From the sequence record OR062947.1: a DNA stretch of 64,000 nucleotides, one strand, 5' to 3'. The notes beneath the pieces were generated by a model. The model saw only the letters and a program-made list of their open reading frames with translations, had not been told where the DNA came from and searched no databases. The position numbers and the translations under genes are program-made. This document shows positions 40,439-42,554 of the stretch, in pieces (position 1 is the stretch's first letter; every line of letters starts with the position of its first letter). The DNA is from Escherichia phage 348Ecol098PP.

Positions 40439-40954
40439 ATGAATATTTGTTTAGGCAGTACAATTCCTAAGGGTTACGTAATTGATGTCACTACTTGGGA
40501 AAATGACGGCGACAACTATAAAACCAAAACATTATTTGGTGTAGAAGAGCATGAGCTCCAACAGTTTAAATATCTCTTGAAGAAATTTAAGAGTCGTCAT
40601 TCTAGCACTAAAGCTGAACGTTACTGTGGTAATACACCATTCAGTGATTGCTCGCTTTTAATCTATGAATACTTGGTTGAAGGACTGTTCTCAGACCAGC
40701 TTTATCCAGAATTCATTAAAAAGGTCTTTGGTATTGAAGTCGACCTTGGTGATAAATCTGAAGAAGACGAAGCCCGCGTATTCGACCTGTTCTTTGTGAA
40801 AGGCGATGAGGTATCTCAAGGACTTATTGATATTCTTGGCTATGCTTCTGAATACTACGACTATGATTTCTTGCGTGTAGTTGAACGTGTTGAATTCGCT
40901 TATATTGAAGAAGAAATTGTTTTGCCGACTGTTAAAATGATTGATTTGCTTTAA
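40439..40954 (+). CDS. Hypothetical protein
   Basis: 171 aa ORF. Confidence 0.5.
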   Translation: MNICLGSTIPKGYVIDVTTWENDGDNYKTKTLFGVEEHELQQFKYLLKKFKSRHSSTKAERYCGNTPFSDCSLLIYEYLVEGLFSDQLYPEFIKKVFGIEVDLGDKSEEDEARVFDLFFVKGDEVSQGLIDILGYASEYYDYDFLRVVERVEFAYIEEEIVLPTVKMIDLL

Positions 40955-41033
40955 GAATTATGTGTTATTATTAATTCATACCCTCTATTACCAAAGGTGC
41001 TCTAAAGTGCCTTTCATAATAGAAAGTTATTTA

Positions 41034-41107
41034 GGCCCTGTAGCTCAACGGTTAGCAGCAGTCCCCTCATAAGGGAAAGGTTACCAGTTCGAATCTGGTC
41101 TGGGTCA
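41034..41107 (+). tRNA. tRNA with anticodon CAU (Ile2/Met type; T4 tRNA-Ile uses CAU)
   Basis: Hand-folded cloverleaf: acceptor GGCCCUG, T-arm ACCAG-UUCGAAU-CUGGU, anticodon loop CUCAUAA; one acceptor mismatch and a weak outer anticodon-stem pair; no encoded CCA. Confidence 0.55.
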
Positions 41108-41113
41108 TATATT

Positions 41114-41189
41114 CGAGGCATAGCTCAGAAGGAAGAGCAAGGACCTTCTAAGTCCTAGGTCGTAGGTTCGATCCCTACTGTCTCGACCA
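41114..41189 (+). tRNA. tRNA-Arg (anticodon UCU)
   Basis: Hand-folded canonical cloverleaf: acceptor CGAGGCA/UGUCUCG, D-arm GCUC-AGAAGGAA-GAGC, anticodon arm AGGAC-CUUCUAA-GUCCU, T-arm GUAGG-UUCGAUC-CCUAC, encoded CCA. Confidence 0.8.
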
Positions 41190-41207
41190 ACTTTAAGTGA
41201 GGAAAAT

Positions 41208-41552
41208 ATGAAAGGCAATATTTATCTGGTAGTTCATGATTTAACGTTTTATTTTAACGAATATGATACAGTTATTTCTCATCGATTGATTAATTCGCTG
41301 TATCAGCATGCCGATTACATTTATGTTCAAAATGAATTTGGACATTGGAAGTTCATTAAAAACCGTTCTGGGTTAACTAGTTTTGAATACTTTGATCGCA
41401 AAGACCTTTTAAACGAAATCCCATTGCAACATCGGTTCCAGAAACGCGAATCATTATATTATTGCCGTCATATACCAAACGCCGAATGTGTTAATGAAGC
41501 GATTAATCTATGGCGTCGGCGTCGAGAGCAAATTGATGATATGCCAAAATAA
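41208..41552 (+). CDS. Hypothetical protein within tRNA region
   Basis: 114 aa ORF between tRNA-Arg and structured RNA region. Confidence 0.45.
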   Translation: MKGNIYLVVHDLTFYFNEYDTVISHRLINSLYQHADYIYVQNEFGHWKFIKNRSGLTSFEYFDRKDLLNEIPLQHRFQKRESLYYCRHIPNAECVNEAINLWRRRREQIDDMPK

Positions 41553-41559
41553 GAAGCCG

Positions 41560-41812
41560 GGTCGCTACCGGTAAGTCGTCGGACTGATGTTCCCTGAGTA
41601 AGGACTGGTCTTAATAAATCTTTATGATTTGTTAATATCCCCTTACATCACAGCAGAAACGGCGCACAGAATTATCGATTCGAGGAAATATCTTTGCCGT
41701 AAGCCGAGTAGCGTTTTTGACGGAACGTTCGGATATGGTCGAGATATGGCCTTTTAAAAATATTGAGTAGCGTCAACTACTTAATAACCGGGTTCGAATC
41801 CCGGCGTTTCGT
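41560..41812 (+). ncRNA. Candidate stable small RNA(s) with tRNA-like 3' end (comparable to T4 RNA C/D species)
   Basis: ~375 nt ORF-free region; canonical T-arm CCGGG-UUCGAAU-CCCGG at 41788-41804 with 7-bp acceptor pairing (41721-41727 with 41805-41811) but no canonical anticodon arm; followed by terminator. Confidence 0.35.
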
Positions 41813-41851
41813 ACAAACACTTACTTAGTAGGTGGAAACCCCGACAAGGTA

Positions 41852-41884
41852 TATAGCCCCTTCCGAAAGGTTGGGGCTTTTTTG
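41852..41884 (+). terminator. Rho-independent terminator after tRNA/small-RNA region
   Basis: AGCCCCTTCCGAAAGGTTGGGGCT + TTTTTT; same module as 57113-57145. Confidence 0.65.
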
Positions 41885-41892
41885 TATAAATA
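41885..41892 (+). promoter_or_regulatory. Late promoter TATAAATA upstream of the 208-aa CTS-bearing gene
   Basis: TATAAATA 36 nt upstream of ATG 41928. Confidence 0.55.
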
Positions 41893-41927
41893 TAGTAAAC
41901 AATAAACCTACTTTCTAAGGACCGTCA

Positions 41928-42554
41928 ATGTATACTTTTAATGAATTTTTAGCCGAAACGGAAGTAATCACCGAAGCCGGTGTACGTATGACAAAAGAGA
42001 AATGGCAAGCTGCTTACGATGCTATTTCTGGTACAAAAACTAGTACAGAGTTTTTCAAAAACGTTCAAGCCATGTACGGTATCGACACTTCCAGCCAAAA
42101 AGAATATTACAGAGCTTCTAAAGCATTCAAAGATATTGTTAGTGGTGGTGTTTCTGCTAAATCGGGTTCGCCTAAAGTAAAACCTGCTCCTACCATTCCT
42201 AAACCTGCGACCCCTAAAGCAATAGCAAAACCTGAGCCTAAGCCGGAAGTAAAAGCAACTCCTAAAGCTCCTGCTCTTAAGTTTGATACTTCTAGCCTGG
42301 AAAAAAAATATAAACAACTATCTTCGCTTGTTCGCGATATTGAATCCGATACATCTTCACTCGTTCGTGAATTCAATAGTCTTCGTAATGGCCAACATAT
42401 CAACAACCTTGATACCCCGGACCTTTATCGTCTTTATTTGACTATCGAAGGTTTGAAGTACACTCAACCACTTCACGACGCGATTAAAGAAAAACTTCGT
42501 CAGGCAGGTCGTTTGGCTGCTGACGCTGCTCAGTATGCAAAAACTCGTAAGTAA
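41928..42554 (+). CDS. Internal-protein-like (large), leader MYTFNEFLAE, proline/lysine-rich linker
   Basis: 208 aa; CTS-like N-terminus; PKVKPAPTIPKPATPKAIAKPEPKPEVKATPKAP linker; TATAAATA late promoter at 41885-41892. Confidence 0.55.
   Translation: MYTFNEFLAETEVITEAGVRMTKEKWQAAYDAISGTKTSTEFFKNVQAMYGIDTSSQKEYYRASKAFKDIVSGGVSAKSGSPKVKPAPTIPKPATPKAIAKPEPKPEVKATPKAPALKFDTSSLEKKYKQLSSLVRDIESDTSSLVREFNSLRNGQHINNLDTPDLYRLYLTIEGLKYTQPLHDAIKEKLRQAGRLAADAAQYAKTRK

Follow-up and report, generated by a model that had tools for sequence, protein, structure and literature searches.

What RNA is encoded at the distal end of the small tRNA cluster in this phage? The 64-kb window, meaning the whole stretch of DNA that was analyzed, comes from a T-even phage of the Mosigvirus (RB69-like) type. 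The original prediction, made from the letters alone, described a reduced tRNA set followed by a T arm and an acceptor helix closed around sequence that forms no D or anticodon arm. Two readings were offered: a stable RNA like those of the T4 cluster, or a tRNA-derived element engaging RNase P or the CCA-adding enzyme. The locus was examined by alignment with T4, comparative folding and searches for homologs.

Organization of the tRNA and small-RNA cluster

ARAGORN and Rfam find only two tRNAs in the 64 kb of the window, against eight in T4, as had been predicted. They belong to the following cluster:

40950-40974, + strand: candidate T4-type middle promoter 5' of the tRNA/small-RNA cluster, with MotA box TGCTTTA, 12-nt spacer and -10-like TATTAT (a motif match only)
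41034-41107, + strand: tRNA with anticodon CAU (ARAGORN; Rfam tRNA, 52.4 bits), sharing 72/74 positions with the T4 gene that is annotated tRNA-Ile
41114-41189, + strand: tRNA-Arg (UCU), the AGA reader (ARAGORN; Rfam, 66 bits)
41208-41552, + strand: ORF114, 114 aa, phrog_3355, between tRNA-Arg and rnaD; homolog of the T2L 'trna.2' ORF (PMC2330249)
41549-41668, + strand: very probable rnaD (species 2) ortholog, 104/120 identical in the T4 rnaD alignment, with a 6-nt spacer to rnaC
41675-41813, + strand: very probable rnaC (species 1) ortholog, 139 nt, 138/139 identical in the T4 alignment; MFE -50.2 kcal/mol, z-score -4.6
41818-41834, + strand: small 3'-trailer hairpin between rnaC and the terminator (from folding); its T4 counterpart has an altered sequence
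41855-41884, + strand: intrinsic terminator, an AGCCCC..GGGGCU hairpin followed by a U run (from folding), conserved with T4 and annotated as a terminator in phage G53

The CAU tRNA is presumably the ortholog of T4 tRNA-Ile and would read AUA after lysidine modification. tRNA-Arg (UCU) differs in sequence from T4 tRNA-Arg, and the alignment gives low similarity outside the universal positions. AGA and AUA occur at 6.9 and 12.0 per 1000 codons in the window ORFs; together with the near-identity of the CAU gene to T4 tRNA-Ile, this upholds the earlier reading of the pair as decoders of these two codons. A further candidate middle promoter, TGCTCTA...TAATAG with its start at 41001, was seen by motif match. 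In T4, a middle promoter just 5' of the tRNA cluster drives one transcript of ~1.75 kb, which spans the tRNAs and the species II and species I RNAs and terminates after species I (PMC2330249).

ORF114 follows tRNA-Arg and runs into rnaD, whose first bases are shared with the ORF114 stop codon. Its sequence gave no match in Pfam or among solved structures in the PDB, and no significant fold match was found with its AlphaFold model (pLDDT 73). The predicted range of the cluster, 41034-41812, correctly took in the tRNAs and rnaC but did not set ORF114 and rnaD apart. Beyond ORF114, the predicted 375-nt ORF-free region (41553-41927) indeed lacks a credible ORF, containing just a 42-aa TTG ORF and a 34-aa ORF. 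The terminator expected there was also recovered, as a hairpin and U run shared with T4. A terminator consensus scan called none at this site, though direct folding and T4 conservation show one; an internal U.U pair hid it from the simple scanner.

Relationship to T4 rnaD and rnaC

The T4 species 1 and species 2 RNAs were described in the 1970s. The ORF-free region can be matched position by position to rnaD and rnaC of T4, at the identities given above, so that the predicted "stable RNA comparable to T4 RNA species C/D" turned out to be literally right. Gene order also agrees: tRNA-Arg, here followed by ORF114, then rnaD, rnaC and the terminator, with flanks that align with T4 and the same order and terminator. 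As in T4, rnaC is the last RNA gene of the tRNA cluster, 3' of rnaD and 5' of the cluster terminator. The best explanation, and a very likely one, is that 41549-41813 comprises orthologs of T4 rnaD (species 2) and rnaC (species 1), with rnaC adopting a four-arm, tRNA-framed fold.

Relative to T4 rnaC (AF158101 70908-71046, 139 nt), the window copy occupies the same place 3' of rnaD, precedes the same terminator and differs by a single base at an unpaired position. Given this identity and shared position, the fold should be the same and the biogenesis presumably so; the transcript ends used here for both RNAs are taken over from the T4 annotation. The tRNA-like element of the original prediction is the 3' two-thirds of rnaC. 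Its size was underestimated: the RNA is 139 nt rather than about 94 nt, and the annotated T4 RNA starts 45 nt further upstream. The 5' context of rnaC differs between the phages, with two tRNAs, and ORF114 between tRNA-Arg and rnaD, in the window and eight tRNAs and segB in T4. T4 RNAC and RNAD were detected by Northern blot as real late RNAs that accumulate as stable species (PMC9697503), and a passage in PMC2330249, citing Broida and Abelson 1985, has rnaC cut from the polycistronic tRNA precursor. The RNAs themselves are already known, and their presence here is of ordinary value as a discovery.

The rnaD copy is more diverged. It shares with T4 rnaD (AF158101 71053-71171, 119 nt) the 5' and 3' domains and the place immediately 5' of rnaC, whereas the central hairpin has diverged. 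The 3' end reads ...GCGCACCA in T4, with CCA encoded, and ...GCGCACAG in the window; the 5' neighbor is tRNA-Arg directly in T4 and, in the window, the ORF114 stop codon, with an overlap of a few bases. The predicted rnaD fold (MFE z-score -3.2) opens at the 5' end with a hairpin of 5 bp and a 7-nt GUCGCUA loop, continues with a long arm that is hypervariable at its tip, and is closed by a stem to which the 3' end contributes; the consensus fold from 13 sequences has 7 covarying pairs. Because that consensus fold has no acceptor/T-arm frame, rnaD was rejected as a candidate tRNA-like RNA. Phage lines evolved on the host ECOR34 all acquired an identical rnaD SNP (PMC12685909), which suggests a host-dependent function.

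Predicted four-arm fold of rnaC

For the fold of rnaC, 21 distinct homologs representing about 8 phage genera were aligned with MAFFT, blind to structure, and folded together with RNAalifold. The consensus is the same four-arm fold as the single-sequence MFE structure. It contains 39 pairs, with 98.3% of cells paired and double changes (covariation) at 22 of them; none of 500 shuffles reached the observed values, and slid controls were 41-51% paired. A covariance model of the RNA scores 177 bits and finds one copy in the window. These comparative data indicate that rnaC is a four-arm RNA built on a tRNA frame, with the following predicted parts:

41676-41682, + strand: 5' strand of P1, CGAUUCG, pairing with 41805-41811; the acceptor-like stem so formed has 7 bp, among them two U.U mismatches that are invariant
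41683-41752, + strand: P2, a long arm in the D-arm position with five helical segments; 12/19 pairs with double changes, 95-100% of cells paired
41717-41722, + strand: apical loop of P2, UUGACG, the proposed kissing partner of 41771-41776
41753-41760, + strand: J2/3 junction, UUUAAAAA, A-rich and largely conserved in the alignment
41761-41786, + strand: P3 hairpin with a 10-bp stem, 8/10 pairs with double changes, and a nearly invariant 6-nt loop, CGUCAA (41771-41776)
41788-41804, + strand: P4, the T arm CCGGG-UUCGAAU-CCCGG, whose middle pair changes from G-C to U-A in 9 sequences
41805-41816, + strand: 3' strand of P1, CGUUUCG, then the conserved tail UACAA; in the T4 annotation the last bases of the RNA are ...CGUA, corresponding to an end at 41813 in the window

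The perfect T arm noted earlier is thus present at P4. The idea of an acceptor/T-arm pair around unstructured sequence did not survive, as two further arms make this a four-arm RNA. P1 meets the T arm without an intervening base, as in tRNA (7 + 5 bp), and in the consensus P2 and P3 stand where a tRNA has its D and anticodon arms. One P1 pair shows a compensatory change, from A-U in the T4/Mosigvirus group (9 sequences) to G-C in all other genera (12 sequences); the support for P1 is this single covarying pair, one evolutionary event, and the two invariant U.U mismatches weigh against the stem. All 21 sequences share U138 and the CAA next to it on the 3' side. Three homologs depart from the canonical T loop, with UGCAUCC or UGCAUGC in its place, and strict mimicry of tRNA therefore does not extend to every member.

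Compared with canonical tRNA (RF00005), rnaC shares an end-to-end 7-bp stem adjoining a 5-bp T arm, a UUCGAAU loop in most members, a four-way junction and a slot in tRNA arrays. P1 and the T arm, with its 7-nt loop, reproduce the acceptor/T-arm half of a tRNA, each with one covarying pair. The RNA departs from the cloverleaf in the rest of its body, with a 70-nt P2 and a 10-bp P3 bearing a 6-nt loop instead of D and anticodon arms; it also lacks an anticodon, is 139 nt long, and has two U.U mismatches in its acceptor-like stem. Its genome-encoded tail is N-CAA (UA-CAA, invariant in the 21 homologs) and not the N-CCA of tRNA, although CCA could be added after trimming. The only other matches of the rnaC covariance model, all weak, are genuine tRNAs. 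In the reverse direction, default ARAGORN and the Rfam tRNA models gave no match on rnaC, the top Rfam match being tRNA-Sec, whose 17 bits fall well short of the threshold of 47. At gathering and permissive Rfam thresholds only the two tRNAs pass; the hits to isrK, to tRNA-Sec on rnaC and to NsiR1 on the terminator are noise.

An acceptor-like stem and T arm on a non-tRNA body are also found in the tRNA-like domain of tmRNA, in YrlA (Y-RNA-like) and in plant-virus tRNA-like structures, a likeness of architecture only. Unlike tmRNA and YrlA, rnaC has no G3.U70 alanine identity pair, tag reading frame or Ro-binding stem, and homology is not suggested; neither tmRNA (ARAGORN, Rfam) nor YrlA (Rfam) was found at rnaC. 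The predicted coaxial acceptor/T stem of 7 + 5 bp with its T loop would match the geometry of an RNase P minihelix substrate.

A probable kissing-loop contact

The apical loops of P2 and P3, UUGACG and CGUCAA, are exact reverse complements at 6/6 positions in 21/21 sequences. In Klebsiella phages both loops are changed together, to UUGGCG and CGCCAA, converting an A-U to a G-C pair. With CGCCAA facing an unchanged UUGACG, the duplex would contain an A.C mismatch and is predicted at -0.4 kcal/mol; UUGGCG facing CGUCAA would form a G.U pair. Only 4 of 500 shuffles equaled the observed value, and slid controls were 16-50% paired. The energy of the loop-loop duplex ranges from -5.5 kcal/mol in this sequence to -7.6 kcal/mol, and a match by chance is expected at about 1.2e-3. 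From this covariation the two loops probably kiss. Support is moderate, because the loop covariation is one event in one Klebsiella-phage clade. Since P3 is far shorter than P2, the loops could meet within one molecule only through a sharp bend; a dimer of two molecules joined by the same loops fits the data equally well. The contact, suggested by the alignment, is a new detail of rnaC. The comparative model as a whole, with its four-arm tRNA frame, U.U acceptor-like stem and covarying kissing loops, opens the function of the RNA to experimental test.

Distribution and annotation of rnaC

Karam-, Moon-, Winkler- and Gelderlandviruses, and likewise SonariX, carry rnaC inside tRNA arrays, flanked by tRNA genes and in the place of one. 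It lies directly 3' of a tRNA gene in five genera and in four of them also directly 5' of the next tRNA. In PEi26 it occurs alone, with no tRNA found within 400 nt. Both RNAs are present in the T4 and RB69 groups, rnaD occurs without rnaC in Dhakaviruses, where rnaC has been lost precisely, and several genera have no rnaD. This separate occurrence identifies the two as independent modules, with rnaC behaving as a gene in a tRNA slot.

A strict rnaC core motif recovered 15 true viral loci and one chance match from public collections. A short 3' motif and a two-anchor gapped motif returned mostly chance matches and, after an nhmmer filter, few extra viral copies. None of the at least 120 bacterial or archaeal loci listed in the motif scan was a true rnaC homolog. 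Rfam has no family for rnaC or rnaD, and among the annotated records listed, out of ~800 carrying the locus, few name either RNA. Many GenBank records mislabel the locus as a tRNA (Lys, Met, OTHER) or as a spurious 'hypothetical protein'. The model has value for annotation here, as the pseudo-tRNA labels rely on a helix that has not been kept in evolution.

Alternative explanations

That helix is the acceptor of the original prediction, said to enclose ~60 nt. Its two strands are indeed complementary in this phage: 41720-41727 (ACGGAACG) can form 8 pairs, including one G.U, with 41806-41813 (CGUUUCGU). Standing beside a perfect T arm, it could make 41720-41813 (94 nt) a genuine but unusual tRNA gene, either class II or intron-containing. 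With relaxed settings ARAGORN does predict a tRNA at this place, Rfam gives its weak tRNA-Sec match, and the locus is annotated as tRNA-Lys in phage 55, tRNA-Met in SonariX and tRNA-OTHER in G9062. The homologs speak against it. No compensatory change supports the internal helix. One of its pairs is broken in 11 of the 21 sequences, the Melville, PEi26 and Klebsiella-phage groups lose 3 of the 8, and all 500 shuffles pair more often than the real alignment does; it is not a conserved pairing. Its 5' strand, ACGGAACG, is taken up by P2, as part of the apical loop and the 3' strand of the apical hairpin, which is 100% paired with 4/6 pairs covarying, and the true partner of the 3' strand CGUUUCG is the RNA's own 5' end at 41676-41682. 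The default searches, negative as described above with tRNA-Sec far below threshold, fold no conventional class II tRNA in the region, as the prediction had anticipated. The relaxed ARAGORN calls conflict with each other, one being Leu-UAA with a 5-nt intron and the other a 4-base anticodon 'Lys|Stop', with poor D and anticodon stems in both; this inconsistency led to the rejection of an intron-containing tRNA and of one whose variable arm is long. With the start of the annotated T4 RNA also lying upstream of the supposed gene, an unusual tRNA is highly improbable. The chance that the locus encodes a small protein is smaller still, close to nil. The 42-aa ORF at 41629-41757 is present, and many records, G53, F48 and RB69 among them, have a CDS feature over it, but it begins with TTG, its substitutions track base-pair covariation rather than codon structure, and it was rejected on the in-frame stops found in T4 itself and four other lineages, among them the Melville, PEi26 and Klebsiella-phage homologs.

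Two further explanations accept the RNAs and differ on what they do. rnaC and rnaD could be mere processing or stability elements of the tRNA transcript, serving as 3' protection or spacers and having no function after release. Their position in T4 and in the window, where they close the tRNA operon on its 3' side right before the terminator, would suit such elements, as would the loss of rnaC from Dhakaviruses and the lack of rnaD in several genera, by which neither RNA is indispensable; no phenotype is reported in the literature. This is nevertheless unlikely. rnaC lies in mid-array in four genera and alone in PEi26, and a spacer needs neither invariant loops, an invariant P1 and junction, nor 22 covarying pairs across about 8 genera. 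The T4 RNAs accumulate as stable species (PMC9697503), and the shared rnaD SNP of all ECOR34-evolved lines (PMC12685909) also argues for more than a passive element. Alternatively, rnaC could be a base-pairing regulatory sRNA that uses its loops, UUGACG and CGUCAA, or its A-rich junction as seeds on host or phage mRNAs. 

The single-stranded motifs are invariant, as seeds would be, and RNAC and RNAD have loosely been termed 'small regulatory RNAs' (PMC9697503; PMC12685909). The loops are, however, complementary to each other and covary, and their mutual pairing explains the conservation without an external target. The RNA is not known to act on any target, and its compact tRNA-like architecture is atypical of Hfq-type sRNAs, which makes an sRNA decidedly unlikely.

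Proposed biogenesis and role

The reading preferred here is that of a tRNA-framed RNA handled by the tRNA machinery. The two tRNAs, ORF114, rnaD and rnaC would be carried, as in T4, on one transcript running from the middle promoter near 40950 to the terminator at 41855-41884. rnaC would then be excised like a tRNA, with RNase P generating the 5' end and endo- and exonucleases, possibly with the CCA-adding enzyme, generating the 3' end; the acceptor/T-arm handle may be the source of its stability. Excision of this kind is consistent with the placement of rnaC directly 3' of a tRNA gene in five genera. The second reading offered at the outset, a tRNA-derived element engaging RNase P or the CCA-adding enzyme, would likewise fit the anatomy and genomic position of the RNA. 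Because rnaC has no anticodon arm it cannot decode, and judged by its predicted fold it is most likely a tRNA mimic that is processed like a tRNA and does not act as a decoder.

What the mimic might do is a matter for speculation. It may bind a host or phage factor that recognizes tRNA, through the conserved P1 and junction and the kissing-loop body, although this role is rather doubtful. A narrower and quite unlikely version is that rnaC is a non-decoding counter-defence RNA of T-even tRNA clusters, which would neutralize or hijack such a factor. Its targets might then be, for example, a defence nuclease of the host that cleaves tRNA, or an enzyme that modifies or repairs tRNA, with the acceptor/T-arm frame serving processing, and perhaps CCA repair, and the U.U stem, junction and kissing-loop body serving binding. 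A precedent for this speculative decoy idea is the T5 tRNA-Lys that neutralizes PARIS (PMC11464382), likewise phage-encoded, tRNA-shaped and located in a tRNA cluster. Anti-defence phage tRNAs such as T5 tRNA-Lys are decoding tRNAs that replace the cleaved host tRNA, whereas rnaC has no anticodon arm. If rnaC did act in counter-defence, the convergent rnaD mutation that arose on a new host (PMC12685909) would belong to the same arms race.

The ORF-free stretch holds orthologs of T4 rnaD and rnaC

The window comes from a Mosigvirus-type (RB69-like) T-even phage; positions 40950–41950 matched 776 phage records and were 97% identical to Escherichia phage NHEP36. The original prediction had recognized only two tRNAs, followed by a tRNA-like element in an ORF-free region ending in a strong terminator. 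ARAGORN, and Rfam at curated thresholds, likewise found two tRNAs and no further tRNAs or other Rfam families in the 64-kb window, whereas the homologous region of T4 has eight tRNAs. The features of the region are as follows.

Features of the tRNA region
40950–40974 and 41001–41026: MotA-box-like motifs with correctly spaced -10-like hexamers, just upstream of the tRNAs (motif match only)
41034–41107: tRNA, anticodon CAU (ARAGORN and Rfam)
41114–41189: tRNA-Arg, anticodon UCU (ARAGORN and Rfam)
41208–41552, + strand: 114-aa ORF (ORF114), phrog_3355, homolog of the T2L "trna.2" ORF
41549–41668: rnaD ortholog, 104/120 identical to T4
41675–41813: rnaC ortholog, 138/139 identical to T4

In the T4 GenBank record, tRNA-Arg is directly followed by two misc_RNAs, rnaD (species 2, 119 nt) and rnaC (species 1, 139 nt). 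The ORF-free region, confirmed as such, aligns to these base for base, trailer and terminator hairpin included, which bears out both the terminator and the suggestion of a stable RNA comparable to T4 species C/D. The tRNA-like element (41720–41813) is the 3' two-thirds of rnaC and is thus already known from T4, where rnaC and rnaD are described as genuine RNAs whose function is unknown (PMC3014915), expressed late and validated by Northern blot (PMC9697503). Homologs were recorded in another T4-like phage, and during evolution on a new host all three phage lines gained the same rnaD SNP (PMC12685909). A literature search found no later functional assignment for either RNA.

The CAU tRNA is identical at 72 of 74 bases to the T4 gene annotated tRNA-Ile. 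In the window's long ORFs, AGA and AUA occur at 6.9 and 12.0 per 1000 codons, respectively; E. coli uses AGA at about 2 and AUA at 4–5. Given these frequencies, the proposal that the two tRNAs are retained to serve AGA and AUA codons is reasonable. The Arg-UCU tRNA shares its anticodon with T4 tRNA-Arg but clearly differs in sequence, and seems to be part of a T2L-type module, comprising tRNA-Arg and the trna.2 ORF, that is replaced by SegB homing in T4 x T2L crosses (PMC2330249). T4 has nothing at the position of ORF114 and instead carries segB upstream of its tRNA-Arg. The TAA stop of ORF114 overlaps the first bases of rnaD, and in the Karamvirus array a family member lies behind the last tRNA; ORF114 itself gave no Pfam, PDB-sequence, or fold match. 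The MotA-box-like motifs would fit the middle promoter reported for the T4 tRNA cluster (PMC2330249). A perfect late-promoter motif, TATAAATA, lies at 41885–41892, directly past the terminator and ahead of a 208-aa ORF at 41928.

rnaC folds as a four-way junction

Homologs were collected by distant BLAST (802 phage records, the most divergent matching rnaC only). Copies from Karam-, Moon-, Winkler-, Gelderland-, Kanagawa-, and Marfaviruses, as well as from an unclassified 248-kb Enterobacter phage, came from additional searches and motif scans. The 21 distinct rnaC sequences were aligned with MAFFT (alignment A5) and folded by RNAalifold with no structure given beforehand. The result was a four-way junction.

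Arms of rnaC
P1, 41676–41682 with 41805–41811: links both RNA ends
P2, 41683–41752: long arm
P3, 41761–41786: 10-bp hairpin
P4, 41788–41804: T arm

The original prediction had a perfect T arm and an acceptor helix enclosing about 60 nt. The T arm was recovered intact as P4. The 8-bp complementarity behind the helix (41720–41727 with 41806–41813) is present in the window, but the helix itself was not borne out by the comparison with the four-arm fold.

Pairing in A5: four-arm fold versus predicted acceptor helix
Cells paired: 98.3% versus 89.9%
Pairs changed on both sides: 22/39 versus 0/8
Shuffles matching the observed pairing: 0/500 versus 500/500
Cells paired in slid controls: 41–51% versus 26–45%
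Worst pair: every pair at least 81% paired versus one pair broken in 11/21

Substitutions that break the acceptor helix act as compensatory changes within the four-arm fold: at 41723, G to A converts U·G to U-A in a local hairpin, and A-U becomes G-C at the P1 pair 41678/41809. The internal strand has a different sequence in the Melville, PEi26, and Klebsiella-phage groups and still forms the local hairpin there. In the minimum free energy fold of the 139-nt rnaC (-50.2 kcal/mol; z-score -4.6), too, the partner of the 3' strand is the 5' end of the RNA itself. On the covariation and pair counts, the acceptor helix appears to be accidental complementarity.

A structural detail new in this analysis is the complementarity of two loops. 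The P2 tip loop, UUGACG (41717–41722), is the exact reverse complement of the P3 tip loop, CGUCAA (41771–41776), and both are near-invariant in all genera compared. In the Klebsiella-phage clade both are altered (UUGGCG and CGCCAA) with all six Watson-Crick pairs retained. All six positions pair in 21/21 sequences, against 16–50% for slid controls; the loop-loop duplex energy is -5.5 to -7.6 kcal/mol, and a perfect 6-nt complement would arise by chance among three loops of such composition with a probability of about 1.2e-3. These data are read as a probable kissing-loop contact tying arms 2 and 3. Because the covariation amounts to one evolutionary event and P2 is far longer than P3, the loops may instead pair between molecules as a reciprocal dimer. 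In three homologs (A5 rows L022, L024, and Serratia_LC53; columns 129–135), the T loop UUCGAAU is replaced by UGCAUGC or UGCAUCC with the stem kept, so T-loop identity is less constrained than the P2/P3 loops and the P1/junction sequence.

rnaC has a tRNA-like frame and is independent of rnaD

As in a canonical tRNA, the 7-bp P1 abuts the T arm (5 bp, UUCGAAU loop) with zero bases between. In Karam-, Moon-, Winkler-, and Gelderlandviruses and Enterobacter phage SonariX, rnaC occupies an exact tRNA-gene slot, a few bases from its neighbors; in the Karamvirus locus, for example, rnaC (701–850) lies between tRNA-Trp, which ends at 700, and tRNA-Gly, which begins at 852. From A5 a covariance model was derived that found a single copy in the window (177 bits), and its only other, weak matches in 149 kb of phage tRNA regions were genuine tRNAs. 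Unlike a tRNA, however, rnaC lacks both a D arm and an anticodon arm, and default ARAGORN and Rfam tRNA models gave no match on it. Relaxed ARAGORN produced incompatible calls (one a Leu-UAA interrupted by a 5-nt intron, another with a 4-base anticodon) built on the discredited helix. A degenerate tRNA is essentially excluded.

The tail after P1 reads U-A-C-A-A, one base off the tRNA N-CCA, and U138 and CAA are invariant in 21/21 homologs, which points to a conserved signal at the 3' end. The tail U-(A/C)-C-A-A (window 41812–41816) is kept in every genus, whether a tRNA, CDS, or terminator comes next. In the 950-nt locus of Edwardsiella phage PEi26 (L135), no tRNA was detected, and rnaC (398–547) is solitary, preceded by a CDS; its excision would not always depend on flanking tRNAs.

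In rnaD, conserved 5' and 3' domains flank a hypervariable hairpin, and the closing pair of the 5' hairpin covaries; its consensus fold revealed no tRNA-like frame. The T4 rnaD 3' end (L002, 2054–2060) is ...GCGCACCA, with a tRNA-like CCA encoded, that of the window (41662–41669) is ...GCGCACAG, with CCG or CCU in other phages; CCA is thus not conserved in the DNA. Dhakaviruses (CLBP2 and VR5; L008/L009, about 695–905) keep rnaD, the post-rnaC trailer, and the terminator with rnaC precisely missing, a pattern resembling clean deletion of the 139-nt module. At least six further genera show the reverse, rnaC but no rnaD; the two RNAs are independent modules.

A possible role for rnaC

By analogy with T4 and general tRNA biology, the tRNAs and small RNAs would form one transcript from which tRNA-processing machinery could free rnaC: RNase P would act on its 5' side and nucleases on its 3' side, where CCA might then be added. 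The invariant U·U stem, junction, and kissing-loop body might then offer a binding surface for a tRNA-recognizing factor, in which case rnaC would, speculatively, be a non-decoding tRNA mimic. Rival readings take rnaC as a processing by-product or as a base-pairing sRNA. A small ORF is also annotated there, many records laying a "hypothetical protein" over rnaC; that frame contains stop codons in T4 and four other lineages, and a coding function is essentially excluded. The analysis also yields a corrected anatomy, a structural model for rnaC that can be tested, and the exposure of a widespread annotation error.

Mis-annotation in public records

The same 94 nt are labeled tRNA-Lys, tRNA-Met, or tRNA-OTHER in GenBank records, labels explained by pseudo-tRNA calls on the discredited helix. 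Records mislabeling rnaC/rnaD include OQ599310 (L001, 1272–1365), PQ898399 (L137, 456–550), MK373779, MK327943 (L003, 1181–1309), MG746602 (L136, 416–553), and AY303349. Among the matches listed, few records carry correct labels, mostly RB-series phages and T4 derivatives, and Rfam has no family for rnaC or rnaD. SonariX (PQ898399), a 248-kb "partial genome" with a Karamvirus-like tRNA array that includes rnaC, is of unusual size for the group and may be an assembly chimera or concatemer.
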